A DNA stretch of 61,548 nucleotides, the filler included, from Rhabdomonas costata (lineage: Eukaryota): assembly GCA_019059605.1 (NCBI GenBank). It is 17 parts of 17 records of this genome, joined end to end, with 100 filler letters (N's around TTAATTAATTAA, not from the genome) between each part and the next. Parts side by side here need not be neighbours in the genome. Positions count along the whole stretch, not along the records: positions 1 to 3,531 come from JAHMHO010000752.1; 16 more parts are not named here. One strand, given 5' to 3'. Every line of letters starts with the position of its first letter. The stretch's first letter is position 1. Shown here piece by piece: positions 1-57,903 of the stretch. The translations under genes and the position numbers were made by a program. Under the pieces are notes generated by a model that saw only the letters and a list, made by a program, of their open reading frames with translations, did no database searches and had not been told where the DNA came from.

Positions 1-127
1 GTGAAAGTACCTAGATATGTTTAAACACGTCCCACCTCACATGCCTCGGCTTGGAGTCGGGGGGTGTTATTTTTCGTCCCTTTTGCGTTTATCGATCTCC
101 TGGCTTCAACGTGAATCGTCGGCTAAA
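1..127 (+). repeat. Terminal direct repeat of contig 1, copy 1 (circular or tandem-repeat overlap)
   Basis: Bases 1-127 (gtgaaagtacc...cggctaaa) are identical to 3405-3531. 127 is a common de Bruijn k-mer size. Confidence 0.95.
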
Positions 128-1058
128 GATAGACAACTCTAGAAAACCGTGCGGCCGAAGCGCCTTTGTTCGCGTTGGAACGCGCGCTTTTGTTGAAACA
201 AAAATTCGAGAATTCCAGGGGAAGCGCCGCCATCCACGATAACGCTGCTGAGGGTGTCTCAGACGCAAAGCTGCGCATCTTCGGCCTCATGATGTGCACG
301 AAAAGGCGCGCAGCTGTGCGATGAAAACGGGATGGGCGCCTACGCGCTCAAGGGCAGTGCGGCGGAGCGCGAATAACCGCTAGGGTTGAAGGATGCGAGT
401 AGGTGGAAAGATGGCGCGCTTGTTGGTCAGTTTGGGTGGTTGTATGTGCGGGTGTGTTCGGGTGGGCAAGCTGGTCGCGTACCGTAGTGCGTGTGAGTCC
501 TCTTCCCCTCTGCGGCTTTCCATCTGTGTGAACCAGAGGTCAACTGCAGCAAACTTCCACAGCAAATGCACCCGCGAAACGCAAGTGATCATCTGCGCAG
601 CAAAAACGTGCCAGGTGAGGCCAAGCTTTTCTTCATTTATCACAAAAACGCAAACCAACAAGGAGAAAAGGAAAGCTGCCCTGCTGGAAAACCAGACCAG
701 TGATGCAGCTCTCTGCCAAGGAAAGGAAATGGCAAGAGATGACACAGAAATACGCACAGAAGGAGTGTAACGGAATGGAAGGGATTGTAGGGGATCACGT
801 CCCTTTCCCTGTGTGTCCCTCATTCTCCTGGCGCAGTGAAACATCACACACACCAAAAAAACAAAAACGAGGCGCTTTTTGGAAATTAAAGCAGCGAAGC
901 AACCTCCGAAAACAGAGGGACACAAAAAACACACAAATACACAAAGAAAACCCGGCGGCATCACTGATTCTCCGTTGCAATGTTGCAATGACCCCACACG
1001 AAAGGAGCATGTGGGCGCATGTGTGACACAGCTGTAAAGCATGAGCTTTCTTTTTCTT

Positions 1059-1967
1059 TCACCTTGTTTCACCCACCTGGTCACTGAAAGTGGGCTGGGG
1101 AACAGAAGGTGAGATGCTGAAATCCTCGCCGAGGAAGCGCAGCTCAGGCACCCCCGGGATCAGGCCCAGCTCCCAGGCGTAGCGGTAGAAGGTCTTCACG
1201 CCCTCCATGTGGGCCGGGGTGAGGTCGTACGACAGGGTACGCCAGTACTCCACCAGCCCCTGCTCCCCGAGCCAGGCCCGCTCCGGGCATCGTGCGGCGA
1301 CTTGGGCGTAGCTCTCGGAGGCCAACTGCTTGGCCGCCAGAAGGTCCTCCGCCAGCTGCCGCAGCCTCGCGCCGTGCTCCTCCGTCGCCTTCCGGCGCAC
1401 AATCCACAGCGCGAAAACAAACGGCAGCCCCGTGAACTCCTTCCACAGCTCCCCAAGGTCATAGCAGTAGCGCCGGCCTTGGCCCACGCTCCCGCTCCCG
1501 CTGCCATACACCACCGCCTTCAGCGCAGCGTCGCCGATCACCAGCATCCCGGGGTAGTGCTGCATCCCCTCATCAACGGGCAGGGAGGTCCGCTCAAACG
1601 TGTTGCGCAGGCCGTACCTCTTCGCCAGCAATACCTTCAGCAGGTTGACCGAGGTGTCCGACTCCGTGGTGAGGCCAATGGGGCGGCCGTCGAGCTCCTC
1701 GATGGGCACTGTGGACAGCAGCAGCACACTCAACACGGGCCCCACGGCGCTAATCGAGAGCCCCGGCAGCAGGCAATACTGCTCCGGGGCCATGGCGTAC
1801 TCGATGGAGGAGGTGGGGGTGAGGTCGAGCTCCCCGGCTCGCAGCATTGCGTTCAGGCGGGCCGGCACAGCATCCACAAAGCGGTACACTCCACAATCGA
1901 AGTGGGCTTGCAACGCAGTGAACAGGGGGGTGCAGTTCAGGTACTGGATGTGCCCGAAGTTCAGCAT
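1059..1967 (-). CDS. mqnA: Chorismate dehydratase MqnA (futalosine menaquinone pathway), Geobacter/Desulfuromonadia-like
   Basis: Uninterrupted ORF from ATG at 1967 (MLNFGHIQYLNCTP). MqnA family motifs occur in order: YLNxxP, VPARLN, SSIEY, SISAVGPVLSVLL, TTESDTSV, IGDAAL, DLGELW, GLPFVFALW, YWRTLSYDL. Confidence 0.93.
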   Translation of the reverse strand: MLNFGHIQYLNCTPLFTALQAHFDCGVYRFVDAVPARLNAMLRAGELDLTPTSSIEYAMAPEQYCLLPGLSISAVGPVLSVLLLSTVPIEELDGRPIGLTTESDTSVNLLKVLLAKRYGLRNTFERTSLPVDEGMQHYPGMLVIGDAALKAVVYGSGSGSVGQGRRYCYDLGELWKEFTGLPFVFALWIVRRKATEEHGARLRQLAEDLLAAKQLASESYAQVAARCPERAWLGEQGLVEYWRTLSYDLTPAHMEGVKTFYRYAWELGLIPGVPELRFLGEDFSISPSVPQPTFSDQVGETR

Positions 1968-3304
1968 CTTGAGAATCCCTGTCACCGCCACCACCCACAA
2001 AATAGGCAATGATAGTATTAATTATTAGTCCACAATTAAAATTACAATACCAGGCCCACGTGCATTCCCGCACGGCCATACATCTGGTAGAAAGAAACAT
2101 TCAGATGTCAACAAACTTGAATGACTACTAACCGCCCTAAATCGTTCACAGTAAAGGCCCCGGAAAATTCCGCATCATTTGCTGCTGGGCGGAGGTTCTT
2201 GGGAAACCTCAATGGTGCATTAATGGGGATTTCCAAACTGTCACACACACATGGAAACAAACGCACCTATGTGTCAAATCCACAAAAGAAGCAGCGAGCG
2301 AGACGGCCGGGAAAACGGCAAAGCCCAACAAAAATCTGAGTGAAAAAGTCCAAATCAGAAAGAGATTCAGACAGAGACAGAACGACAAAAGACGGAAAAG
2401 AACAAGCAAGCGAACAATGGGAATAGGAAGACATCACCCGAGAGCAGCTTCAACCGCGTTCACCACTGAGGGGAACTATTTTAGGAAAGGCATCACACGC
2501 TGACTCAGCAAAGAGCCTGCGCCCACGTGTGCCATTTTCATTTGCTCTTTTGGGTGTACTCCGCCGCGTTCCCTCACTTCCTCACTTTTGTTGACCATGT
2601 GGGACTGGAGCATTTGAATGCAACTCCCACGGATCGCCGGTTGCTCTTCACACCTGACTTGTTACTCCCCCGTTAACACTTCAAGACAGCAGTGGCACGT
2701 GCCCGAGGTGATTAAGAATTTGGCACGTTTTATCTCACAAGCGAGAGATTTTGACGACGACAGAAAAAGAACTCGAACCTTTGAAATACACGTCGTTAAC
2801 GCAGTGTCCCTCAAGCAAAGTTGGTCCATTCCATCCATAGCGTTCCCACAAACACCTGCGAGAGTTTTGGGATTGGCAGCCCTTCTGCGCCTAGCCCACC
2901 CCCCCGAAACATTGCTGCTGAAATCTTGAAGGCACTAACTGGAAACCCTAGTTGCGAGGGATTGCATGTTGGAAACATAAGCAAGAGCCCCACAAAAAGA
3001 ACTGAGCGGGCAAAGATGGAAATCACCCCTTAATCGACCTGTGCAAGCTCACTGGTGCAGTGTATCTAGATAATAACTCCCCCCCCCCTCAAACCAGTCA
3101 TCATTCAAGGTGAAACGGGCAACAAAAGACCGCCCCAGGGTGGGCGAACAGCCTTCGAAAAGCATACCAGCATCCATCCTGGGCTTAAGGGCAGGATATC
3201 GGCCGAAACCGCCGAAAGTGACATTTGTCCAAAGGCGGAAGGGGCGATGCCCAAAACAAGGTTGTTTTGTGCGAAAAAGTCGAGACACGTGTTTGGGGGG
3301 GGGG

Positions 3305-3391
3305 TCCGGGGGGCCCCCGGATCGGTCTCATTCCCGCTGGTCGAAACCCGCTACCGAGCCTGAAACCCGCTACTGCGACGGAAACCCACGG
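3305..3391. repeat. GC palindrome followed by three 19-bp-spaced GAAACCC(G/A)C direct repeats
   Basis: tccggggggcccccgga at 3305-3321; gaaacccgctac at 3343 and 3362; gaaacccacg at 3381. Confidence 0.7.
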
Positions 3392-3404
3392 ATGTACTTG
3401 TTTT

Positions 3405-3531
3405 GTGAAAGTACCTAGATATGTTTAAACACGTCCCACCTCACATGCCTCGGCTTGGAGTCGGGGGGTGTTATTTTTCGTCCCTTTTGCGTTTATCGAT
3501 CTCCTGGCTTCAACGTGAATCGTCGGCTAAA
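3405..3531 (+). repeat. Terminal direct repeat of contig 1, copy 2
   Basis: Identical to 1-127. Confidence 0.95.
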
Positions 3532-17982: not shown

Positions 17983-19300
17983 GTGCACAGAGTGCCCTGT
18001 GGTTATCCCTACTCATATCTTTTTCCATCGATTGGCTCGATGGTGGTCAAAGAATCAACCCCAACCNNNNNNNNNNNNNNNNNNNNNNNNNNNNNNNNNN
18101 NNNNNNNNNNTTAATTAATTAANNNNNNNNNNNNNNNNNNNNNNNNNNNNNNNNNNNNNNNNNNNNGTGGGTGTGTTTGGGTTTTGTGTTTCGCGCACGC
18201 TGGTCTGGTAGGGTGTGAGCTTGAGTTCGGCGAGGCAGCCAGTCAGCGCTATCACTCGTTCAAAAGCAGGAGAATATTCGGTAGCCCGCTGGAGGCAGAA
18301 ACACCCCCTCGTTTCTGGAAGGCCTAACACTCTCGTCTTTCCAGAGATACGAGCATCCTCGGATGCTCAACGTGTTCCGGAATCCCTTTCCATTGCTTTA
18401 CCTCTAAGGTCGCCCTACACCCACTCAGCCTCTCAATGATGCGCAGGAAAAATAGCTGTTGTCGCGCCTTCTTTTGTAGGGGTGGCAAGGGTCGCAGTCG
18501 GACTGCTGCCGCTGGCGCTTCGGGCGCTGGTCCGGGTCCTGACAGTGATCCTAGCGGTGGGGCGCATGCTGCTGAGGCTTCGGGGGGTGCAGACTGTGCT
18601 CATGGCCGCTGCTCTGCTCGCCGTAGGTCATCATCGTTTCGTTCTTTTTTGTTACGAGAAGCCCCCCTCCTCGTTTCTTCTTCGCAAGGCGTTGATGGCG
18701 CTGTGTCGTTGTTTGCTTTGATTTATGAAACTATGTAGTATTTGTGGCTCAGTGGTCTGTGGGAAAGCAAGCAGGGGGCTGAAGTCGCGCAGGATACATG
18801 CCTTGGGCTTCTTGGCGCAAATGGCGCCAAGGTCAATACTCTACCCCCAGCAAGAGTTGAAGGCCAATGACTGGCCGGGGTACCAGCAGAGTGCCGCTTT
18901 TGGGTATCCGTGCAGGAATGTACACTCTGTACTGTGTTGAGTGCTGTGTAACATAGGATATGGCGGCCTGTGGGGCCGCCAGTGGGTGTTGGACGCGAAT
19001 TGAACACGACAGGACACCGCCCGTGCGTGTAGTGCTGTGCTGGGAGGACCCTGCTCAGCAATACGATGTAACACATGAGGAAAACATGGCATATTCATGG
19101 CAAAACTTTGTGGTATGCCACGCGGTAAACTCAAAACTGCAACTTATTACTTGACTGTTCATAACATTTTTAAGCCACGAAAAGGAATCCATGACACTTG
19201 CGATGATTGCCCGGAAAACGCCCGGGAAAGGGGGCGCGTGAAATGTACAGATCAGCAGCCACCCAACCACATAACAACACACACACACACACACACGCAC

Positions 19301-21035
19301 CCCACGGTGGGGATGAAGTTGGCCACCAGGTTGAGCACCCCCCACATTAGAGCCAGGTCGACGCCAAGGAAGGAGTAGATCCCAAAGAGCCCGGCCGCCA
19401 CGACTGCAGAGACCGCGAACTTGATCAGAATGTACGAGCGGATCTGCTGGTCGATCCGCTGATACAGGCTGCCCTTGGGGAGGTACAGATGGTGGTGGAT
19501 ATCCCACTACACTCGCAAGCAAGGGTGTATAAAGTGGATTTCCCATAATTTCGAGGGAGAATATTTGTACTGCTTCAATTTCAAGGACGTACACTGAGTT
19601 TATTTGAATGTGTGTGCGGGGGTCACATTAATGCACGTCGCAATTGCGACATGAAGCTGACCTTAGGAGAATAGGTGCGGCTGTAATTTCTGGCGTCGCC
19701 ATCAGGCGCGGTAACGCTTGTGACAGCTCACAAAAACGCATATTAACCGCCATCTTATTACACGACTTTGGTCCGTTTCAATGCAAAACACAACAAATTC
19801 GTTCCACTCAGCAGTTGCACACTTCTCGCGAAGCTAAAGTGCCAAAGAGTGGGAAATGAAGTGAGTACTCTGATTCGTTTAATGTGTCCGTGTCGGCGGG
19901 CGGACTGGCTGCGTGGGAGGGAGGGTCAAAGGCTGCAGCGCGCCGCACTTGCTTGGGCTGAATCGGAACCACCAGCAGGAATGCCAAGAAGATCAGCACG
20001 AACGTGGTGCGCTCCACAACAAAGCTGACATGGTTGGGGAGCTGCACCACAAAGGCATTCAGCATTCCCAGAACTTCAGGAAGCACGCCGTCGTCCCTCA
20101 GGTCCACCTGCGAAAGAAAAAAAGGCACAATTATTCCGTTTTGCCTCAGCACTCCCACATGTACGGAAGACTTCCGCATCTGAATACGTGATCATGCGGA
20201 GAGCGTCGCGAAACGTAACCAGTGTAACCAATGATCGAATGCTAGTGTCTGGCAACTGCGGTTGGTTGGACGGGTAAACTTACAGTTCTTTCTCTTATCG
20301 CTGTTCTGGGGGTTTTAACAGGGGGGGGGGCATATCTAGCCTCTTCAGCTGGCCTCGGGAATGTCACCATTCGTCGGGGCCTCATCGGAAAGGGGCACAA
20401 CCGGCCCAAATCGTCACCCTATTCGTTGGTGACATACACCATGGTCACTCCCGGACCGGACCGGACCTAGCATTGACCTCAGAACTTGAGCTAGAGTGAC
20501 GGGCTGGGGCTCAATTTTGGTGGTATGGTGGAACTTCTGAACTGAGTTGGTCGACCGCTTCCCCACTTTTTTTTGTCTACACACAGGCTTGGAAGGACCG
20601 TTTTTTTTGCGTTTCACTTGTACTTGGGTTTTGATAAGAGACAGAACTGTAGGATGGTACAACGTCCGCCCACCTGCACGCCGGTGTGCCAGGACAAATT
20701 TAAGGTAATGTTTCTTGTTGGTATTGACGCGAGTGTATCCTCTCGTCCACAGTCAAAGAGCAGGTGATAAGTGTTCAAAACCAGAACCTCAGTTGCAGAA
20801 GGCCGGTAAATCCGGCCAGAAGCGGCAACAACAAAAACGGTGCGGGACCTTGAGATACGTCAGCAGCTTCTGCACCTGAGTGGCGACAATCATTGCCCCG
20901 TGGATATACTTGTCCCGCATTGCTTGTAAGGCGTACACCGAACACAGCACAAGGTACCCCAGCACAACAATCGTACTCAGGCAAACCATCACCGCAGCCA
21001 CAGCGCAAATCCATCGCGGCATGAAGCACCGCAAC
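19301..21035 (-). CDS. AI-2E (TqsA/PerM) family transporter, partial, 3 exons
   Basis: GT-AG exons: 21035-20849 (MPRWICAVAAV...DKY), 20107-19949 (..FVLIFLAFLL), 19473-19301 (RIDQQIRSYILIKFAVS..LGVDLALMWGVLNLVANFIPTVG, the AI-2E signature). Confidence 0.82.
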
Positions 21036-21789
21036 CTGACAGGAAGACAAAACATGCTCGCCGATCAAAAACCCAGTTCACTGGAAAGTGGGGATGCAGT
21101 TCTTGCGCCAACGGCTGGAGAAAAAAAATCAAGATCAACAGGATGGGGGGGCACTCCATAACGCGCCATACCCTTCTTGTGGTGCTGTTTCCCCACTGGA
21201 AACCTTTCACCTTTTCTCGCATTAAAGAAAAGGAACCCCGAGGTGAAAAGTGTCTGACTTGATATCCCATGTGAATCCATCACTCACGACTTTTCGCGTT
21301 ATCAGCTGAGTCAGTTGTTCAGACCTTTCCACTCATTTTTTTGAGTGAGAAAGAGAGAAAGTCAGGGGTTTGGGAGCGCGTATGCGCGTTGTGATACCCG
21401 AGACAAGCATTGCAATATACGACCAAACGACCAAAAAAGCGGGGGCAAACACTCCCGTCGAGGCCCGCCCCGCAGCGGTTAAAGTGCTCACGTCCTATGT
21501 TCGGGTAACTGAGAATGAACACTACATCATCGACTTACAGTGACCTTACCAGGACCACGACTCTAGGGGTTACCCTATTTTCCTAGCACATTGTGTGCCA
21601 GAACAAAAGGCCGGAGGCTGCAAGGAGAGAAAGCGGGCACAATGAGCGGGAAAGAAAACAAACCCCCAATCACACCCAACACNNNNNNNNNNNNNNNNNN
21701 NNNNNNNNNNNNNNNNNNNNNNNNNNTTAATTAATTAANNNNNNNNNNNNNNNNNNNNNNNNNNNNNNNNNNNNNNNNNNNNGGTTTGG

Positions 21790-32490: not shown

Positions 32491-32639
32491 TATCTGGTCC
32501 GTTAGAGCCACCCCCCATTCTCGCCCACTCTGGCCACACNNNNNNNNNNNNNNNNNNNNNNNNNNNNNNNNNNNNNNNNNNNNTTAATTAATTAANNNNN
32601 NNNNNNNNNNNNNNNNNNNNNNNNNNNNNNNNNNNNNNN

Positions 32640-33593
32640 GGTGTTGGGTGAAAGTGAAGACGTAGGTGTCAATGACTGGGTAAATGTCAATGTGACGGTG
32701 CACGTAGGAGTTGGAGTGGACGAAGATGTGACTGTCGGCGTCTCCGTAGGAGTGCAGCTAGGAGTCACCGTAAGAGAACCACTGGGTGTCAAGGTGGGAG
32801 AGGATGTCGGGCTCGACGTCGGTGAGGAGGTTGGAGACGATGTTGGCGAAGATGAGGGGGTGGAGCTCGGCGTCACGCTGGGCGTCAGAGTGGTTGTGGG
32901 CGTCGGCGTGGGTGTTATCGTGGGGCTGTCCGTGGGACTCAGTGTGGGGCTGGACGTCGGAGTCGATGTCGGGCTGGGTGTCGGTGTCTGGGTAGGGCTT
33001 TCGGTTGGCGTTGCCGTCGGAGTCAAAGTCGAAGTCGGGGTCGGACTTGGTGTAGAGGTTGGTGTCGAGGTGGGTGTGAAGCTGGGAGTAACCGTTGGAG
33101 TGAGGGAAGGGGTGGAGCTCGGCGTCACGCTGGGCGAAAGAGTGGTTGTGGGCGTGGGTGACAGGGTTGCGGTTGGAGTGGAGCTGGGCGTGGTGGTCGG
33201 GCTGCAGGTCGGCGTGGAAGTTGGAGTGGACGAAGGGCTCGACGTCGGCGTCTCCGTAGGCGTCGGTGTGGGGCTCAACGTGGGGCTCAACGTTGCCGTG
33301 GGGGTCGGCGTCGGAGTGGCCGTGGGGGTTGAGGTGGGCGAGGATGTCGGGCTCGACGTCGGTGAGGAGGTTGGAGAAGATGTAGGCGAAGAGGATGGAG
33401 TGGAGCTCGGCGTCACGCTGGGCGTCACAGTGGTGGTGGGCGTCAAAGTGGGCGTGGGCGTGATGGTGGGCGTGGGACTGAGAGTGGGGCTGGATGTGAG
33501 TGTTGGTGTAATGGTCATAGTTTTTACCGGCGTCACAGACGCAAGTAAGATGGCGAAGAGTATCATGGCAAAGAGGTAGAAAGCGTTCAGCAT
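32640..33593 (-). CDS. Secreted or surface mucin-like Thr/Ser/Pro-repeat protein, 5' part
   Basis: ATG at 33593 after an AG, hydrophobic signal peptide [19 protein letters not shown], then ~290 aa of TPT/SPT repeats running off the contig. Confidence 0.85.
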
Positions 33594-36500
33594 GTGGCCT
33601 TGCAGACAAGAAATGATAAAATGTCGACAAAAAGAGCTGTTCTGCTTTAGTTGGAAATATCACCAAGGTCAATGACAAACTAAGCCAAGTCGTGCCAGGT
33701 GGTGCAGCACAAATTCCAAAAGTCGCTCGAAGCAAAGTCGGCATTGGTTACTTTGCAGAGAAGTTTCAGATAAGGTTAACGCTCGGTGAGCGCTGAAAAA
33801 CGGACGGAATTTTGAAACAGAAAAGAGATGGCCTTGCGTTGAAATTAAGGGAGAGCTTTTACATCTATATCCTTTACTCCATTGACATGACTGACAGAAA
33901 AGGGGCAGCGCAGCACCCAGGGATCCCCATACTTTCGTGTTTTTTTTGTGTTTTACTGCATTTTCGAGGTTTTTGTAATCCTGTGCTCTTCGCAACCTTT
34001 CGTAAATTTCCCGTGCTTTCCCGAATTTCAGTATTTTTGGCGCCATTCCAAATGCACCCGACCCAACTTTTTGTTTATTTCTGTTGTTTTCCCATATGCA
34101 CTAAGTTATACCCTTCGAATTCAATAATGCAGTGTTTTCGTTCTCATTTTCGCATTTTCCCCCATGAGATAACCAATTCCGAAGAACCGCAAACTAGCTT
34201 CCACCACCAAAAGAAACCCTGCCCTTCTCATCTAACACAAGCCCGGTAGCGCCTTTTCTTTGGTCCTAAAAACCAAAAACGACTGGAAGAGATAAAAACT
34301 TGAAGAACCTCAACGTCTCAAACAGTTTTGGACCCCTTGATAGTTTTCTAATTTCAGTCTAGAGTAGAGAAAATACACTCGACAGGCAGGGGTAGAACGT
34401 GAGAGGGGAAGGCGTTTTTCTGGATCAATTACCTATCAGGATCAACTTTTATGAACAGGAATTCCGCAAAAAGAGTGCCACGGGAATAGTTGGAAAATCG
34501 ATTCGGGAGTTTGCCCAACCTCGAACTGTATTTTACCTCCCTCATTTGTTTTCTTTCCTTTTCAGACCTTTCGACTTGGATCCATGGAGCAAGAATGGAG
34601 GCAGCCAACATGACACATGCAGTGAGAACACGTAGGGTAACGTGAAGTGGACGGGATTCCAGGCGCACAGAATCTCTGGAAACACCCACACAGGAAGAAG
34701 AAACAAATAGGCAGCGAGCAAAAAAACGAAAAATGGTACAGGCACATCACGGCAGCTGACGCACTGTGCAACGCGAGCTGCTTGCGACCTCCTAAACCCC
34801 TTTCCTCGGAATCCTCTCTCGCTCTCAATCTCCGTGTGCCCAAACCCACTTCCAATCAAGCACTGGTAACGGGAGGGACGCTGTGATCGCTGAAAATCTC
34901 TCCTATAACCACAAACGCCCAGACGGTCAACACAGTAGTACATGTAGTATTGGTTTTGATGCCTCGCGATTCATCCCGGGCATCAAAGGCCCAGACTCAA
35001 GGGCTCTGGCCGCAGGTGTGTGCGCTATGGACGAACATGAAGTTGCACGCACTCGTGAAAAGTCGAGCGTTTGGTCTCAATTATCCAAGATCACGGGAAA
35101 AAATACAGGAGGCAGTGCCACGATGCGGGCCTCCGAAATGGCTGTGAAGCAAGTCAGTGGCCATGGACTTGCACACAACGGCCGTTTTCGTACAGCACCG
35201 TAGATCGCAAACCGTGGCAGTCCGTGAATACTCCTCGACCATCGAGGGAATTGCTGACCCACTCCCCTGTGCAGGCATATGTGTGTCGGTGTATCTGTGC
35301 GAGCGAACGAAAAAAGAATTCGGAAATGGATTTGGGAGATAGGGGCTACTGCAGCAACCCTATATGCGCAGCGCGAAAAATTTCCGGTCACGGTGTGCTG
35401 TGCGATGAAAAACGACAGGATCGGAGATAATCGGTCCGCACACACGCATATGTAACTCTTTCTGCGCTTCCAGCGATTGCGCTGAATGTGTTTCAGCTTC
35501 TGCCCACATACAACACTGTATGCACCTGCATCTTGAGATGGGTTTTGTACGGTGCAAGGTGCAAGAGTGCATGGAAAACCAAAAATAAACACACGACGCC
35601 AGCAACGATCACCCTTTCTATGTGCCACACTAGCGGGCAATTTCATGAAAGGAGACACACAACCGATTATTGGACCCTGATTATCATCTGAGCCCGCGTC
35701 ACCTAGGTAGGGGTGGACACACCAAGAACTGAAAAAAAAAAAAGGAAACAAAACACTTCCCAACAGTCCTTCGTCACCTCCTTTAAACTTTTAAGCCCGA
35801 AATGCCTGATGTTGGTTGAGTCTTCTTTAGGCGGACAATACAAGAGGACCAAGACGCCGGCTCAGCAGAAGCTCAGCGCGCACACGCACTTCTCGTCTTT
35901 TCGAAGGGCGAATAACCACGGAACGCAAAAAAAAGGGGGGGACACAAGTCGTCAACTACTGCAAGAAAGCAAGATTGGAGGTACCTGTCCCCTGTCCCAA
36001 TTCAATTGCGAAAGAACGGCCTTTTCTGTACCTCCAAACATTCACTCACCCCACTGGCACTCGCATCGCAATGAGTGACTGCAAAGTGCCCCGAGCGGCG
36101 GGCGTACCCTCTCCCTAATCTGAGGTCAAAGGGGGCGCGCGGTGGACGAAGGGTNNNNNNNNNNNNNNNNNNNNNNNNNNNNNNNNNNNNNNNNNNNNTT
36201 AATTAATTAANNNNNNNNNNNNNNNNNNNNNNNNNNNNNNNNNNNNNNNNNNNNGTGGTTTTGTATGTTGCGTTCATTGCTTTCGTACGGAATTCTGGTC
36301 ACCCATCACTTTTTTGGGTTACGTTGCCACTGACCCGCGGTTTGGATGATTTTGGCCGGAGGGGAGAACTTGATTTTTTTATTCCGAGTATTGTGGGTGA
36401 TGCTGTAATATCTTATAATCCTGTTTTATCGTATGACGTCCCATTTCCACAGACCCAACCACACATCCTTTAAACTGAGACAATTAGAAGAAGAATTGGA

Positions 36501-46601: not shown

Positions 46602-47149
46602 CTGAAAAAAAGCCACAGCACTTTGACACGTCAGAGATTCAGAAGAAGAAGAAGAAGAATGTAGGGTACTAAACAGGTTCATGCGCATCACAGGGCAGTT
46701 AGACAATCGGGATAAGCAAGGCAACAGTGACAGTGAATAAATTGGCCTCTGAGAAAAAGTCATTCACCTCAAAGTTTCCAACACACAATCAAGCGACAAA
46801 CGCAACTGCGGCGTGTCAAAGCCCTCCCCGCATTGCTCACATGCCGCATCTCACAGTTTCCGAAAAACAAGCAGCCCACCATCAAACTATCGAAGGATTT
46901 CCAGACGACACACCGCATTACCCACAGGAACCGCCCCTAAAAAAAAGCGATTCCAAACTACACCTCCCACAAACANNNNNNNNNNNNNNNNNNNNNNNNN
47001 NNNNNNNNNNNNNNNNNNNTTAATTAATTAANNNNNNNNNNNNNNNNNNNNNNNNNNNNNNNNNNNNNNNNNNNNCGAAGGCTAGGGAAAGATGCAGGCT
47101 GCGATCAAAGGTTCAACATTTCTCGAGAACGCTGAGCATGGCTGGAGCC

Positions 47150-47194
47150 ATACACGCACACGCACACACGCACGCACGCACACACGCACGCACG

Positions 47195-47246
<52 letters not shown>
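47150..47246 (+). repeat. (CACG)n/(CA)n microsatellite; a second copy at ~47659-47723
   Basis: Visible di- and tetranucleotide repeats. Confidence 0.95.
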
Positions 47247-47248
<2 letters not shown>

Positions 47249-47696
47249 GCACACTGTGTGTGACGTTTTCAGGAAGCCAAGAGAGAAGGCTGAGGATGGG
47301 TTTCCTGCGGAGTCTGCCAAGCTCACTCTCTTAGGGCACCGGGAAACGGTGTCATGCGTGAGATTTCATCCCACCTTCAGGTTTGTTTTGTTCCAGGCTG
47401 GATTGTAGGGCAAAAATTACTTTACGTTACTTTCCCTACATAATGAGTCCATAGTTCATACCAACAATATAGTAGTGGTTTTATTTTTGTTTTCTAGGTT
47501 CCTGTAAGTCTGTAAGTGAGTACTTCATGCTTATATTTTAAAATTTCGCCATCCCTCAGTTATCGCATGTTGGTTAAAATTCCGTCCAATTATCTCGCAC
47601 CTTTCCGAAGTTTCGTTACTGTTTTTTTGCCCGTGTTCCGAGGACGCTTTGCTTCCCGCGCGTGCGTGCGTGCGCGCGCGCACACACACAGACATG

Positions 47697-47727
<31 letters not shown>

Positions 47728-48206
47728 CGAGGGCGGCTTTCATCTTTTTCAGGTCTTGTATAATAACTTTTGGCTCAAATCATCGTTGTCTTCGCAACAT
47801 AAGGTTAGTTCAGAGAAAGGTAATTTGGTTTCGCATGGCACAAGCATATGCTAGATAGCGTTGTCAAGATACCCTGTGAACACTTTGTTGTGTTTTACAC
47901 CTTGAATTTCTTTTTTCGGGACGAAATCTTTGAACGAAAAGTAAGTGTTCAACCATTCATCTCCTCCCGATTTAAAGACTGTCGTGAGGTTAGTCAAAAC
48001 TAACAGCACCCTGTGCAGCGTGCAAAAGAGCATGTTCTGCATCAGCAGTAACCGCAGCTCGCCACCTTACACTTCGCAGCACAAAGGGCTGACCACACAG
48101 TCTCCAAGCTCTGAAAAATCAGTCTTGCCTGCTCATTCACATTCCTTTCATTCTGAACAAATTCTTCGGGAAAAGGTCCTGCTCTGCTCGCATGCCACAC
48201 TTGCAG

Positions 48207-49431
48207 TTTGATCGCGAGCTCGTCCGAGGATTGCACGATTCACGTGTGGGATTTCGAGTCTGGGCAGCACGAGAGCACCCTACGGGGGCACACAGGCATT
48301 GTGAACTTCATCGACTTGAATGAAGCGGGCAATGTTTTGGGTCTGCGCGTTTCTTGATCTTAGTGTCAAGCACTGAAGTTAGTCTCTTGCTGTTCCCTGC
48401 CCTTTCAGCCCTCATTAGAATTTTCTGTGGTGCACCTCACCTCCCACCAGGTCGGCTAATTTTTTAAGATCGTAAAAAAAACGCAAAAAACGTAAAAGAA
48501 TCGTAAAATCTAGTGTTTTGTTTCTTAAAATCCAGGGTTCCCGAAAACCGTAGAAAATTTGGACGTAAAAGATAATGTAGTAGAAATCAACCTTTAGTCT
48601 CGTATGAGGCAGGACGTGGTCAGGAAGGTATTTTTTTGGGTGTTTTGTTTCTTAAAATCCAGGGTTCCCGAAAACCGTAGAAAATTTGGACGTAAAAGAT
48701 AATGTAGTAGAAATCAACCTTTAGTCTCGTATGAGGCAGGACGTGGTCAGGAAGGTATTTTTTTGGTTTTGGCCTGTCCGCTCAATTTCTTGGTAAGTTT
48801 GTTTTCTTCGTGCAAACCTGTTGTACAAATTTCCCGCGTCCTGTGTGGTGCCGCGGCGAATAATTTTGGCTCATGGTATTGCCTTACACCACCGAGTGAA
48901 CTGTGGCCTCCCACACAGCAGCATCCCCACAACCGTGCACCAAAGAACTGCGTAGGCCATGCAATCTGTGATTGACGGACGCAGTGGAACGCTTTTTATC
49001 TATATCACATTTCAGAAGGCAACCGTAAAAGTTAATCCCACACCACAATAGCCTTGAGAACGCAATTTTGAGTCAATTACTTCGCAGCGGGGGCTGCTTT
49101 GGCTTCGCCCTCTTTTACTGTTCTCAGTTTTGAGTCAACTCCGTTATTTTTCTTCGTATTGTTGCCTTCTTGTCGGGTGATTTTGCGACGCAACGCGCGA
49201 ATTCTGACTTGCATGTAAAATATCAGTCTGAACCAGAATCACATCTTCTTGTTCAGCGTCCTGTTCTGCCGACACCACTGTGAAGCTCTGGAGCTTCCCC
49301 TCTGGGCCGTGTACGCGAACGCTGGCAGGACACGACCACACCGTTTCGTGCGTTCGGTTCGTTCCGGCTTCCGAGAAGCTGGTGTCGTGCTCACGTGACC
49401 ACACCCTGAGAATATGGGACTCTCACAGCGG
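48207..49431 (+). CDS. LIS1/PAFAH1B1-like WD40 protein, two exons
   Basis: Exons 48207-48340 ([28 protein letters not shown]) and 49257-49431 ([32 protein letters not shown]), collinear with LIS1 WD repeats 1-3. Confidence 0.8.
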
Positions 49432-50815
49432 GTGCGTGTGTCGTGATCTCCGTCTCTTTGCTGTGTACAAGACGACTCCTTCTTTTCTTACTCCCTTTTT
49501 TGCTGTATTCTGGGAAGACCTGGGTATTACGTTTGTGCAACGGGTGCGGGTCAAATGTGCATGCCCCCTTGCATCTCTTTGCATATGACCCGTCTCACTC
49601 GTTTTTACCCCATTCATTCATTTAACCCATTCGGTTGTTCTTGGGCCTCACTGTTTTCTTTTGCGCGATGAACATTGAACAGTGAACAGTAGCCTTAACC
49701 CATTTTATGACCAAAAATACACCATCGAGCTCTATCTCTCTTGGATCTGACCCTTCCAGTATTGACTCTGTGATTTTGGTGGGCTCCAGGCGGGCGAGAG
49801 CCATTTGCCTGCGCCCACCCACTATCAGCCTGGAAACCCAGTAGACGGGGAAACAGGGGAGAAACAGGGAAGGAATGGACGGAAACTATAGAAGAACAAT
49901 AGAAATTCCGGAGGAATTTTTTTCAAAATGGCCAACCCATTATTGGGGTGGCGTCTCCCTCCGGATCGACTTTTTTGTCTTTTGGTGTCGCCAGTGCTGA
50001 GCAAAACGGTGAGAGCCCAGCACGCCCGCACTAGAGGACACCGCCTTTGGAGACATTCCAGTCGCTTAGTCACTTGCCCTTCCCCCCTCCCCCAGTTTTC
50101 GAGTTGCCGCTGCGGACAGGGACCGTCCTCGACGGGTTCCCCCTCCCTTCTCCAAAGCAGACTTGCGGGAGGCTCGTGCTCTACGTACTACTTCCCCACT
50201 GCACCCTCTGCACCCGTTCTTCTTGCAGCAGCAGAAACGCAGGGACCTTTGCTCTCACATTACTGACAGGGAAGCGCCGGGGACAATACCGCCTCCTAAC
50301 CCGCAAAAGGTGGAGCACAAACGCCGCCTGCTTGAGCGTACGCGCTGCTGAGCCACAACCCTACGAAAACCACATCGACCCCTTGCCAGCATTCACGCTG
50401 AGGCTGGAAAGCAGCTCTCACTGTCGTCAGGGAAAGAAGCGGCACAAGATTTTAGAAAACATAAGGAAAGAGCCACCAAGGGGGCACCGGTCGGAGGGTG
50501 ACCGGCCTACGCAGCGTTTTGGGAGGCCCTCAGAAGTATATTACCCCAATTAATTCTGTCTTGCACCAGCTGCCGTTCTCTTGGCGGTTTTCTCTCACCG
50601 AAAGGACCTGCCGAAGTGCTTTGCTGGCCGAGTGCAGCATTGGTCACTGTGTGTCGTGACACTTAAACGCCCACGACGCACACGCAACTTTTGCAAGTAT
50701 GCGAAAAACCANNNNNNNNNNNNNNNNNNNNNNNNNNNNNNNNNNNNNNNNNNNNTTAATTAATTAANNNNNNNNNNNNNNNNNNNNNNNNNNNNNNNNN
50801 NNNNNNNNNNNTCGT

Positions 50816-51679
50816 TTTGGTGGCAAGCACGGAGCGAAACGACGCCGAAGGCGACACTAAAAGTTGAATTGCAGTAAATCTATTGGAATTTTTCCTCCAA
50901 TTAATATGACAAAAATCGAAATAAAAAGGGGCTTTATGGACAATAATTCTGTATCTCGTGCCCCCTTTCCCCCGCCCGTCAATGCTGGGTCTACTACAAA
51001 CTCCACCCCCCTGCCCCGTGTGGTGAATGTTGGATCGGAAAATAATGAAAGCAGCGTATCCCAGAGGTGTATTTGCTGATTTCGACAATTTTATACGACA
51101 AAAGTCGATTTAAAAAGGGTCTCGCTTGACAGGACCTGTTTCCTATAATGATTACTTACCATAAAGCGTTACGGCAGCAGCGCACAGGGTGTTTCAGGGT
51201 CCGTGAAAATGGCAACCCAATAACTTACACTGGCAACGAAGGAAAAGCGTTTGGTAGAGAAAAAATCTTTGGACTTCAACAGTGCTTTCAAAATATTTCA
51301 CTTCCACCGACCATGGCGCCTGGGCCATATTTTAGGCTCGTTTTTCGGCTGTTTTTGGCCCATTCTTGGCCCATTTTGCTTGTTTTGCCCCATTTTACGG
51401 CATTTTTCACCAAATATTCACCACCCATATGCACCCATTTGGTCAATGTTGGATTGAAAACTATAATGGTAGTATATCCTACCAGGCCCTGAACTTTTTC
51501 GGGCCCCACATTGACCGGGTGGAAAGGGGGTAAGATACATAATACAGAATTATTGTCCATTTTAAGCCCCTTTGTATTTCGAGTTTTATATTAATTGAAA
51601 GCGAAATTCGAATAGATTTACTGCGATTCTTCTTTTGGTGTTGCCTAAGGCCTCGCTTCGCTCCGTGCTGGCCACCAAA
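50816..51679. mobile_element. Non-autonomous element with long (~175 bp) imperfect terminal inverted repeats
   Basis: 50816-~50988 (tttggtggcaagcacggagcgaa...gcagtaaatctatt...atggacaataattctgtat) is an imperfect reverse complement of ~51504-51679. Confidence 0.75.
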
Positions 51680-52642
51680 CTGAGGGTAAATTTGTACCCC
51701 ATTATTTGCTCCTTTACAAGCCAAAACTACCTTGCCGGCATTTTCTCATTCACTGCAGGGGGCCAAAGATGGAACAAAAGGTCGAAGTCCAAAAAGCAGC
51801 CAAAACAAATGGGCTGAAAATGGCTTAAAAACGACCAAAAAGGCCCTTAGAGGTGCACTACCGAGGTCTTTCTCAGGCAAAGTGTCAGTCTGAAGTACTC
51901 CTGGGTATCATCACTGGACACACCTGGGACCTCGGTCTGAGAGCTTGAGCGCTGGTCTTAACCCTGAAAAGGCCTTAAAATGGCACTTTTTCTGCAGAAT
52001 CGCCAATCGCCAATCGGTAATGAAGCAGCCGTTGACGAAGCCGCGGAGCAGGAAGTAGGGTTGCCATGATTTAATCATAATTAATAAATAAAAAATCGAT
52101 AAAATCGAAAATTTCGTCCAAATTTGATTTAATTCACCACCCTACCAGGAACTCTATAGCCGCTCAACTCTGCACACGGGTCTCGGTCGGGTCTGAAACG
52201 AGGTTTGCTTGGAAGCGGTCCACCCTTTGGCTGCAAATGCGAATGCTGCAACCTAACAGGTTCTGCATTGATCTGGATTGTTAACTCCAGCACATTCATT
52301 GCTTGCAAGATTCCGATTTATAATCGTGGTATACCCCCTGGTTCGCCGTGCTTTTATCTGCCTGAATCCCACCACTGCAATCACAGCCACCTGCAATGCG
52401 GCGATACAATGGCGTAGTAAGGTCGCGTCTTAAAATAGGGCCATGACAATGTGGCACTTGATAAAGTTTACTTGTCTTCTGTGTCAACCTGCTCTGAAGC
52501 ACTGACATACGCTTCCTGGAGGGCGCATATTATCTCGATCGCTCTGAGTCGCATGTTGGCTTCCGCTGCGCCTTTGCTGCCTCAAAATCGGTGAACAGTG
52601 ATTTTAGGGATTTCCGAGTTCCTGAAAGTATATGCGACACTC

Positions 52643-53349
52643 CTTTACCTGTGTACTCCCCCTGTGTGGGAGAGGATTTTTTTGCCGATGCTTACGCTTC
52701 ATGATGTCTTAGAGATTGTGAATGATGATCGAAAACTGAGGCAATGGCTCAGCAAAGACAAGATTGTTGTGCCTACTGCAGCTGAATGCCCAAAATGTGG
52801 TGCGAGAATGCGGTTTGCGGAGCACAGGGGGAGGGCTGGGATGATGTGTTCCAGCAAGAACTGTCGGAAGAGGGTTAGGGTTAGGGTTTAGGGTTAGCCT
52901 AAAACCTAGGGTATCGATGGAGCATGGGGACGCTTGAAGATTTGGTTTGCTGCGAAGGGCGGTGTTGCTTCTGACCACATTGCTGGATATGTTAAACAGT
53001 TTCAGAGGAGGTCCCATATGTCTTACTCGGACTTGTTTGTGAAACTGTGCGAGCACATTCGGGACGGCTATTTTCAGTGATTGTGCCTCTTTTTTCATTC
53101 CCTTTATTCAGAAAAAGGGGGTTAGGACACTTTGCATGCTTCAGGATTTCCAATAAACAGNTTGTGTGTGAAACTGTGCGAGCACATTCGGGACGGCTAT
53201 TTTCAGTGATTGTGCCTCTTTTTTCATTCCCTTTATTCAGAAAAAGGGGGTTAGGACACTTTGCATGCTTCAGGATTTCCAATAAACAGCATGCAGGGGG
53301 TTAGGAAGCCTTGCTCATGTTCCCACTTAGGGGGAGTACAGTAGTAAAG
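52643..53349 (+). mobile_element. Merlin/IS1595-family DNA transposon, internally deleted
   Basis: N-terminal zinc ribbon CPKCG..M...C..KNCRKRV (ATG at 52688) and C-terminus GIDGAWGRLK..GG..DHI..YVKQF..R..DLFVKLCEHI* (stop at 53080). TIRs at 52643-52671 and 53321-53349 match at 24 of 29 positions. Confidence 0.8.
52871..52908. repeat. Interstitial telomeric repeat tract
   Basis: agggttagggttagggtttagggttag followed by cctaaaaccta, a degenerate repeat in the opposite orientation. Confidence 0.85.
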
Positions 53350-54437
53350 CTATGCCGAATAAAAATTACGCATGCCACGAAACAGATATGCTGTCCTGGT
53401 ATAGGCGGACATCATCGCTACCGACCGTTCCGGGGAGTTTCATGGGGTTTCAAACCTCCGAGATCAACTTCCATTTCCACTTCCATCATCAGATACTTTC
53501 CATCCTATGCACTTCACCCATCCCCGTATCGCCGCCTATCGATCCTGTCCCATCTCCGTTCCTAATGCATCGCAAAGAGGCGGCAAACTACATTTCAACT
53601 GACGCTTCAGCAGTTCCTAGGGCGTGAGGCAAATTTATGGACCTGGGATGTGCAACATGCCCCTCGCCTCCTGGCAGCTGTTCTACGAGGAGGAGGAACG
53701 ACAGAAAAGACACGGATCTCCGCATCGACAGTGACCAGTCGTTGTGACAGGAGGGGGGGGGGCAATGGGTAAGTCAAAACGCCAGCTCCCATACAACACC
53801 AAGGAGGAGGGATGTTGCGCTGAATGGCAGTTCGTGGCAGAGTGCGATGACTGCAGGCTCCTCCCTGCTGCCTCCCAGGCAGCCTATTAACAGCACCAGG
53901 ACGGAACGCACGAGTGAGGAAAAAGCAGACTCCGGCTACCGGTTCCGCCAGAAAGGAAACGAGAGACGAGCGTGTCGGGGGTTCAGACAGGCTACGCGGA
54001 GCCTAAGCAGCCACAGGTGAAAGCTCACGTGCGCACATCCAGCACATACACCCGCGCACATGCACAGACCTGAGCCGTGAAGACACCAGGCCAGCACATG
54101 AGAGGAAAAATGAAAGAAGTAGCAACAGGCCCACCGAAAAAGACAGCTGCACAGCTCGTGAGCGGATGCATGGGAAACTACACCCCCAACACACTCATTT
54201 CCCAAGGGCTCACATAAATCTCTGTAGCACGTTTCTTCACTCAACTCTTATGATGCACGTGCACGCAAAGACAAGTACAGAAGGAACTATGGACGGGGCG
54301 CCAGTGTTCCAGCGAATGAGAAGGGGGCACCACCACCNNNNNNNNNNNNNNNNNNNNNNNNNNNNNNNNNNNNNNNNNNNNTTAATTAATTAANNNNNNN
54401 NNNNNNNNNNNNNNNNNNNNNNNNNNNNNNNNNNNNN

Positions 54438-55981: not shown

Positions 55982-57903
55982 ATGTCCAGCAGCCTGGTGA
56001 CCCTGCTGCTTGCCGCCCTAGTGGCAGCGCCCTGGCCACAATGCACCACCCACGGGCTGGACATGCGGTACGACACCCTTCCCCAGTGCGTGACTCTGGG
56101 GCCCACGCTGGCGGGGCAGCCCGCCCTGACCCTTGAGTGGCTCTACAACGCCACGGGGAGCTACCTGCACGGGCGGCTGGTCAGCAGCGGGGAGCGCGCG
56201 GGTTACCCGCCCAGGGACGGGTTTGTTGGGGTGGCTCTGCGAGGGGACGGGGGCACGGATGCCCCTTTGGGCGAGGACAACATGCTGCTTGGCTGGCCCG
56301 TGGACGATGCCAGCTGTATCTCCGCCCTGTACATGAACGTCACAACTTCCTGGAACGGGTGTGAACCCCCGCAGTGTGGGCCGTCGTTGCCGTCGTCCTT
56401 TTTAACCCCAACGAGGTGATGCTCAGAAGCCAACATGAATCCTCAAACGAGATTTTGAGGGTTGAGTCTTCGCAGGTTTGCTTTTCGTTGGAATGCGAAA
56501 AGGTGGGGGATTGATAAATGTATGATTCCCTTAGAGGATGCATGAGCAATGGCTGCCTCCTTGTGCACAGGTACTGCGAGCTTGACAATGCCACCCTGTC
56601 GCTCCCGAACTGCAGCGTGGTTGCTGTGGACGGCTACAACGGGACTTGCCGGTGGGATAACGCCACCATTCCGGTGTATTGCTACTGCTACTGCGACTCC
56701 GTGCGGGGGTGCTGGGGCCCCGCCCCCAGCGGCCAGAACAGCACGGATGGCTGTTACCAGTGCGCTGAGGGCTACGGGGGGTTCTCCTGCCGTGCCCCCA
56801 TCCTAACCGACCTGTACGAGCCCGACGGCGCCAACATCTTCGTTCGCTTGAGCTTTCTACGGAACTTCAGCAGTTACCCTGCTCCCATTGTCCCCGGGGT
56901 GAAGTCTGCCCTGCAGTTCCTGTGGGCCTACCGCTGGGACTCTTTGTTCAACCCCTCCGGCAGTGGGTGCGCAGACTGGGTCGTTTCCGGGTTGTACCAA
57001 AACTCTCCCTACCAAATGGTTACCCGGGACACCGAGCGGGTGGGAGTCTCCCTGGACTGGACAGACCCAGTCAGCTACAACCGGCTTCCCAACGGCTCCT
57101 GTGTGCCAGCCACCATCGTCCCCTTGCCAGGGCAGAAGCCGGTCCTCCACGTGCGAAACGGGCAGGGCCTGCCCAACTTGGGCACTGGATGGATCACCAA
57201 CTTCCTCAAGCTCGGGGGGTACAACGACTACATCTCGGTTCCCTTGTCCTCCACTGTGGACACCTCGGTCTCGTTGACAAGTGAGGGGAACCTGGCCCCA
57301 GAGCCCGGCGACAAGGTCACTTCCGGGGGCACCACCTTAACATGGGGGGTGCTGAGCAATCCCACGGGGCAATGGAACGGGTTTCCCTCTAGCCCCACAC
57401 TGCAGTACTGGAGCCTTGCAGTGACCTCTGCAGCTGGCACCGCAGTCGCCGCCTTGCAGGTCACTGTGATGCACAGTGGTAGCCTCACTTGCTGGTTGGA
57501 CGGGTACCCTGTGTTTACCCTGATGGGCTCTGACGGCGGAAGCCCCACCTCCCCTTCCGGGTTTCCCCTTCCCGTGGGCTGGCACATTTTGCTGTGCAAG
57601 ATGTTTGCCCAATCCCCTGGGGACTACTTTGCGGTGAAGTTCTTGCAGGGCGACACCTTGCTGAGCAAACCCAGCAACCTCACATCGGGCTCCGGGGACG
57701 TTTTGGGCAGCAACTGGGTCACCACTCTCTTGCACTTGGGCCCAGGACTTGGCCAGGGCATCGCCGTGGCTGGGGTCTCAAGCTTCTCGACAAACTTCCT
57801 CAACCCCATTATCGAGAGTGCCATTCAGCCGATGCCTGGGGATTCCGTCTACAATCCCTCTGGCAGCACCGCCCCGTTCTCGCTGTACAGCGCCAGCGCA
57901 TAG
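55982..57903 (+). CDS. Secreted protein with a DOMON-like domain, a Cys-rich EGF-like insert and beta-sandwich repeats
   Basis: Exon 55982-56358 (signal peptide, LTLEW, GFVGVAL, DNMLLGW) splices in phase to 56571-57903 (CYCDSVRGCWG..C..C.EGYGGFSC, LSFLRNF, FLWAY, CWLDG..LPVGWHILLCK). Confidence 0.7.

Follow-up and report, generated by a model that had tools for sequence, protein, structure and literature searches.

How does a gene of bacterial type for menaquinone biosynthesis come to stand alone on a DNA unit of 3.4 kb that closes upon itself in the genome assembly of the euglenid Rhabdomonas costata? The question is raised by contig 1, the first piece (positions 1-3531) of the stretch of DNA analysed here, a window of 61,548 bases that comprises 19 contig pieces, mostly of about 3.5 kb, spaced by N runs around TTAATTAATTAA. 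The gene is mqnA, predicted to encode a chorismate dehydratase, and both ends of the contig are identical. A circle, a tandem array and an artefact of amplification would all be expected to look like this, and we tentatively favour the array. The transfer of mqnA into euglenids is a firmer result than the circle question and holds whatever the cycle is.

First of all we considered the closure itself. Positions 1-127 are 100% identical to positions 3405-3531, and the start-to-start spacing of 3404 defines a unit of 3404 bp in which no internal repeats were found. The features of the closure are the following:

1..3404, no strand: a complete turn of the self-closing unit, 3404 bp long, from the spacing of the terminal repeats and the lack of internal ones.
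1..127, no strand: left copy of the terminal overlap of 127 nt, the k-mer vertex of the graph cycle.
3405..3531, no strand: right copy of the same overlap.
3398..3407, plus strand: pure G/T run of 10 nt, TTGTTTTGTG, spanning the point where the cycle was opened.

The terminal repeat is the sole long-range exact repeat of at least 100 nt in the window; a 45-nt piece of it occurs at two places only and was matched in none of 100 shuffles. Among the 19 pieces, contig 1 alone overlaps with itself at its ends. The window also has two un-merged overlaps elsewhere, 127 and 123 nt long. The longer one, at 48513-48766 in contig 47076-50711, is an exact head-to-tail duplication (127 x 2) whose second copy opens with a G/T head of primer type; it arose where two assembly edges overlap by k=127 without having been merged, and a biological tandem repeat is not involved. 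The shorter one is a 123-nt identity between 53038-53160 and 53167-53289, across the single N at 53161 that lies between the pieces 50812-53160 and 53162-54337. From both overlaps it follows that the k-mer length (k) of the assembler was 127 and, therefore, that the repeat of contig 1 is not a biological repeat of 127 bp but the mark of a cycle, a path that comes back to the vertex where it began. In de Bruijn assembly a cycle closes at k=127 only if each of its points is spanned by real reads of 128 nt or more and, in consequence, the amplified DNA that was sequenced contained molecules in which the end of the unit was joined to its start. In the equality of repeat length and k, contig 1 is like any k-mer overlap artefact. 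However, the two other overlaps are adjacent duplications at edge joins, whereas that of contig 1 links the ends of a path of 3.4 kb, and a genuine graph cycle is thus required.

The ends of the remaining pieces reveal how the DNA was prepared. Among the 18 pieces other than contig 1, G/T-only heads of at least 9 bases were present on 12 and A/C-only tails of at least 8 bases on 11. Contig 18167-21682 retains a part of what we take to be the universal amplification primer at 18167-18191 and its reverse complement, with 2 mismatches, at 21655-21682; this match at both ends is the check on our version of the primer sequence, for which the sole match in the whole window with up to 3 mismatches was at 21666. 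Together, the G/T heads, the A/C tails and the primer remnant are the fingerprint of whole-genome amplification with degenerate primers of the GenomePlex type. Furthermore, the head of piece 53162-54337 reads TTGTGTGTG and departs from the native CTTGTTTGTG, so contig heads carry bases derived from the primer. Contig 1, with a G/T head and an A/C tail of 3 bases each, has no ends of primer type. The preliminary description of this contig had reported the exact 127-bp direct repeat and the missing primer tails, and had taken the overlap for the signature by which an assembler reports a closed loop; all of this was borne out, the last point by the overlaps of 127 and 123 nt found elsewhere.

Short runs of G/T only or A/C only are common in the native sequence (102 G/T-only runs of at least 10 nt in 58.7 kb of the window). 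(CA)n microsatellites were also observed at 47152-47246 and 47697-47724. The break point of the cycle, 3404|3405, falls inside the G/T run at 3398-3407, and in a post-hoc test such runs covered only 2.0% of the interior positions of the plus strand. By its composition this run looks like an amplicon head, or an annealing site of the amplification primer, as at other contig starts. Nevertheless, it fits a genuine cycle and a chimera alike and does not discriminate between them.

The gene of the unit was identified as follows:

1059..1967, minus strand: coding sequence (CDS) of mqnA, 302 amino acids plus stop codon, without introns; identified by PF02621, by its identity with Geomonas proteins and by its colinearity with a euglenid relative.

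The open reading frame (ORF) spans 1059-2009 on the minus strand and its actual start is the ATG at 1967. Menaquinone synthesis by the futalosine route starts with the reaction of chorismate dehydratase. The protein matched PF02621 (VitK2_biosynth) with an E value of 1.4e-75 and 254.5 bits, against a cut-off of 26, over profile positions 2-250 of 252; in an NCBIfam search no model was obtained at E values up to 0.01. Of 8000 candidates scored in the homologue search 2720 were significant, and the best named ones were chorismate dehydratases of Geomonas, Citrifermentans and other Geobacteraceae, with an identity of 66-68% to the Geomonas proteins. The source names of the nearest homologues were either chorismate dehydratase or futalosine synthase. 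The best solved relative was MqnA of Streptomyces coelicolor (E 2e-40; PDB 7AHR, 2NXO), and 7 of the 9 PDB matches were named chorismate dehydratase, the other two being the "hypothetical protein" entries 2nxo (SCO4506, S. coelicolor) and 2i6e. These names and matches identify the protein, at sequence level, as MqnA rather than MqnD, its paralogue in the same Pfam family. In S. coelicolor MqnA the active-site residues Asn17 and Ser86 are given as absolutely conserved, and Tyr242 is also described, in the available text of PMC9672406. The corresponding residues of the window protein, N11, S80 and Y241, were invariant in an alignment of six sequences, and the protein is an intact MqnA, with a predicted chorismate dehydratase activity. 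In comparison with the bacterial proteins it lacks an N-terminal presequence, so that a cytosolic location is the simplest inference, and it bears a C-terminal extension of 24 amino acids. The CDS has a guanine-plus-cytosine (GC) content of 65%, and of 85% at third codon positions (GC3).

Only 27% of the unit is protein-coding. None of its 10 further ORFs gave a Pfam match above the cut-off (the best being DUF3038, E 0.11), Rfam with E values up to 1 returned only noise (CRISPR-DR36, E 0.85), and no tRNA was found by the tRNA scan. Thus, mqnA stood as the sole recognisable gene of the contig, as had been proposed before. No replication, partition or origin function was recognisable among the 10 ORFs of the backbone, compared with Pfam, or among RNA families; eukaryotic origins may escape recognition by sequence. 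The backbone has a GC content of 50.8%, and its trinucleotide profile correlates at 0.914 with that of the pooled other contigs, whose own range is 0.62-0.95. Its comparison with the other 58 kb of the window gave only a chance match of 15 nt (E 0.56), so that the sister circles with a shared backbone, suggested in the preliminary description, find no support within the window. No other convincing Pfam match for the remaining mqn genes (mqnE, B, C, D) was found in the 61.5-kb window.

The closest relative of the gene places it in euglenids. This is L001, an environmental contig of 1396 nt found in a metagenome scan, whose protein is 77% identical over residues 1-302 and with which the mqnA CDS is colinear at 78.6% nucleotide identity. 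L001 opens with GTGTAATCATTTTTTCG (1-17), and these 17 of 17 nt equal the 3' end of the spliced leader published for R. costata, given as ACATTACTGGGTGTAATCATTTTTTCG in the available text of PMC8219788. Because of this 5' end, L001 is a trans-spliced euglenid mRNA. Both coding sequences have a GC3 of 85% and, over 301 codons, a synonymous divergence (dS) of 0.70 and a ratio of non-synonymous to synonymous substitution rates (dN/dS) of 0.22. Similarity extends past the stop codon into the 3' untranslated region (3'UTR):

554..583, minus strand: conserved 3'UTR block shared with L001 (1275-1304), 90% over 30 nt.
850..912, minus strand: weaker match to L001 in the 3'UTR, with 71% over 63 nt and an E value of 6.5e-4.

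The block at 554-583 indicates that the 3' end of the transcript lies at least 500 nt beyond the mqnA stop codon. This conserved 30-nt block possibly has a regulatory role in the mqnA transcript.

In a quick maximum-likelihood tree of 124 rows, the three eukaryote-type rows formed one clade with a support of 100 in the Shimodaira-Hasegawa-like approximate likelihood ratio test (SH-aLRT). This clade nests in a set of 98 rows of Geomonas/Citrifermentans type (SH-aLRT 98), and the Geobacter and Geotalea types fall outside. The bacterial metagenome matches L002-L004 served as outgroups of this tree and L005, a fragment of 23 residues, was excluded from it. An insertion of 7-8 amino acids and the 24-residue C-terminal tail are shared by the window protein and P0002, of the same lineage as L001, and were present in none of the four Geobacteraceae proteins aligned. 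The window protein therefore resembles MqnA of Geobacteraceae (Geomonas, Citrifermentans) in its full-length PF02621 domain and its conserved N11, S80 and Y241, but differs in the insertion and the extension, common only to the environmental spliced-leader lineage, and its gene lies in gene-poor DNA of eukaryotic appearance. The composition of the backbone, the low coding density, the spliced-leader relative and the shared indels all argue for a eukaryotic setting and not for a contaminant. Taken together, these results support well a single transfer of mqnA from a Geomonas-like bacterium to an ancestral euglenid, with purifying selection thereafter, and the suggestion of a horizontal acquisition made in the preliminary description gains from the nested position of the gene and from the euglenid spliced leader of its relative. 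No paper describing a gene of the futalosine pathway in euglenids or in other eukaryotes was found in the open-access text searched, including that of PMC6832408, and the words "menaquinone" and "quinone" are absent from the main text of the R. costata paper PMC8219788.

The cause of the closure was then weighed. A tandem head-to-tail repeat ranks first, with a probability of about 0.45, and we infer it in preference to a circle or a chimera. The unit is a cycle in the k=127 de Bruijn graph of GenomePlex-type amplified DNA from a Rhabdomonas-related euglenid, which means that some molecules of this DNA ran on from the right end of the unit into its left end. The underlying structure would be a nuclear head-to-tail repeat of at least two near-identical copies, each of them carrying one intron-less mqnA. 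The gene was acquired by an ancestor of the euglenid lineage from a Geomonas-like bacterium of the Geobacteraceae, and it would be expressed as an mRNA trans-spliced with the spliced leader, as L001 suggests for this organism. A clean cycle needs a junction depth comparable to that of the unit, with flanks that are rare or absent. The array is preferred because arrays give clean cycles and because a gapless 3.4 kb, in an uneven and fragmented assembly, is easier to obtain from a multi-copy template.

Several points weigh against the array. The same cycle would be yielded by an abundant episome, by a flanking direct repeat and by an end-joining chimera. There is a precedent for circles in this group, as euglenid ribosomal DNA (rDNA) is carried on extrachromosomal circles according to the available text of PMC9082867, and about 1000 candidates for extrachromosomal circular DNA (eccDNA) are mentioned for Euglena gracilis in the accessible part of a preprint (10.1101/2023.11.29.569251). 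The E. gracilis genome is described in the available text of PMC6366073 as sparse, with extensive polycistrony being unlikely, and arrays of the kinetoplastid style should therefore not be assumed. The primer-like G/T run at the break point would have the same look in a primer-mediated chimera formed at the leftmost amplicon head. Finally, the spliced leader was observed on the homologous mRNA L001 and not on a transcript of this organism itself.

As an unlikely alternative to the array, a chimera formed during amplification or library preparation could have joined both ends of a single-copy island of 3.4 kb, the true flanks being lost by uneven amplification or clipped as low-coverage tips. 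The DNA was indeed amplified with degenerate G/T primers, other k-mer-overlap artefacts are present in the assembly, and the cycle was opened, as judged post hoc, in a 10-nt G/T run where the leftmost amplicon head would lie. That run would however be equally expected if heads with primer variants had made the last branch vertex, as in 53033-53046 compared with 53162-53175. A chimera would also need a join spanned by real reads of 128 nt or more and would have to survive the removal of chimeric edges; by a general estimate, the head of its own contig, in direct orientation, would seldom be the one hit among some 10^5 amplicons. The full primer sequence is present nowhere in the unit. A published rhabdomonad draft, for which a kit of this type and likewise a de Bruijn assembler were used, was fragmented by uneven amplification, according to its authors in the available text of PMC8219788, which speaks for an artefact, and only 43.5% of the transcriptome reads are stated there to map to it. 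As a candidate scar of a chimera we considered positions 3289-3305, where GTGTTTGG precedes a run of G and might be a primer remnant, although only 8 nt match our version of the universal primer. The idea was dropped because G/T runs are natively common and no full primer is present.

We regard as rather unlikely a true extrachromosomal circle, either a stable nuclear episome of 3.4 kb comparable to the rDNA circle or an abundant eccDNA derived from a chromosomal mqnA locus. Contig 1 is a closed cycle without primer-tailed ends, as a circle should be, and to the rDNA precedent already cited the accessible part of the preprint adds that the E. gracilis rDNA circle has 11,055 bp and that some of the eccDNA candidates come from housekeeping genes. 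However, any tandem repeat leaves the same assembly signature. No origin, replication or partition function was recognised in the unit. The eccDNAs of that preprint are described as heterogeneous and mostly of 600-1000 bp, from which a weak junction beside dominant flanks would be expected. In addition, the spliced leader on the homologous mRNA points to ordinary nuclear expression, although it is compatible with an episome. That a euglenid of rhabdomonad type keeps its acquired mqnA on a stable, multi-copy nuclear episome of 3.4 kb, with the hint at a eukaryotic menaquinone pathway of futalosine type that this would give, seems quite doubtful.

It is improbable that a single mqnA copy lies between longer direct repeats, such as a partial duplication or a pair resembling long terminal repeats, whose outer flanks dropped out. 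The signature in the graph would be the same as that of a tandem array, and the drop-out of flanks is plausible in an assembly in which most contigs end at primer tails. Nevertheless, Pfam searches on the ORFs of the unit found no reverse transcriptase, integrase or transposase, the unit has no internal repeats, and neither the 127-mer nor the backbone recurs in the remaining 58 kb of the window. A non-nuclear molecule, either a mini-chromosome of an organelle or a small plasmid from a Geobacteraceae-like contaminant, is very improbable, for although the gene has a bacterial affinity of 66-68%, a CDS of 65% GC and a small closed contig, none of 72,556 plasmid records matched in a DNA search, no IMG/VR relative was obtained (55 pattern matches, none confirmed), no rep gene was found in a unit that is 27% coding, the backbone resembles other contigs in composition, the nearest relative is a spliced-leader mRNA with shared eukaryote-specific indels, and L003 and L004, which are bacterial homologues, are surrounded by closely packed genes.

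Two further features of the unit are the following:

2280..2400, minus strand: pyrimidine-rich tract upstream of mqnA on the coding strand, read directly from the sequence.
3079..3304, no strand: runs C10 and G11 as an imperfect inverted pair, with arms of 21 nt, 76% complementary and 184 nt apart.

The pyrimidine-rich tract is possibly a signal region for trans-splicing. A similarity between the 5'UTR of L001 and positions 2310-2337 of the minus strand was discarded as not significant, since its score of 23 compares with a mean of 17.6 and a maximum of 30 in shuffled sequences. The arms of the inverted pair, at 3079-3099 and 3284-3304, are followed by GGGGGGCCCCCGG and by three GAAACCC(G/A)C motifs (3344-3389). 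The pair probably represents native priming sites, or possibly a small structured element.

In the window as a whole, long ORFs are almost absent and an Rfam scan at the gathering score gave no matches; because of both, the window fits a gene-poor eukaryotic genome. An open frame of 355 amino acids at 32592-33659 on the minus strand consists nearly entirely of mucin-like Ser/Thr/Pro repeats, which leave all other frames open too. Another one, of 461 amino acids at 56518-57903 on the plus strand, is rich in Cys and in N-x-S/T motifs, and its only Pfam match was DUF4232, below threshold (E 0.0047, 17.5 bits against a cut-off of 27). By this composition it is possibly an exon of a surface or secreted protein.

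The unit can be compared with two known kinds of euglenozoan DNA. Like the rDNA circle and the eccDNA of E. gracilis, it belongs to a euglenid and is self-closing in the assembly; here closure is known from the assembly alone. The rDNA circle has about 11 kb, whereas the unit has no rRNA and bears a single protein gene, bacterial in origin, and the eccDNAs, described in the preprint text as mostly below 1 kb and heterogeneous, contrast with its 3404 bp. With the tandem arrays of Euglenozoa, described for trypanosomatids in the available text of PMC1621084, it shares a head-to-tail junction, a unit of gene plus spacer and trans-splicing of the spliced leader in the lineage; it differs in that no array of a horizontally acquired euglenid gene was found in the literature searched.

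Should the cycle be only a chimera or a tandem repeat that collapsed, the apparent minicircle would be an ordinary feature of the assembly. If, on the contrary, a stable mqnA episome existed, it would add a second class to the extrachromosomal chromosomes of euglenids, next to the rDNA circle. In either case, the first-step enzyme of the futalosine route has moved from anaerobic sediment bacteria into euglenids, where purifying selection has maintained it in two lineages and where, in at least one of them, it is expressed with a spliced leader. This raises the question of whether facultatively anaerobic euglenids may possess a low-potential quinone of menaquinone type beside rhodoquinone, or may make another use of 3-enolpyruvyl-benzoate.

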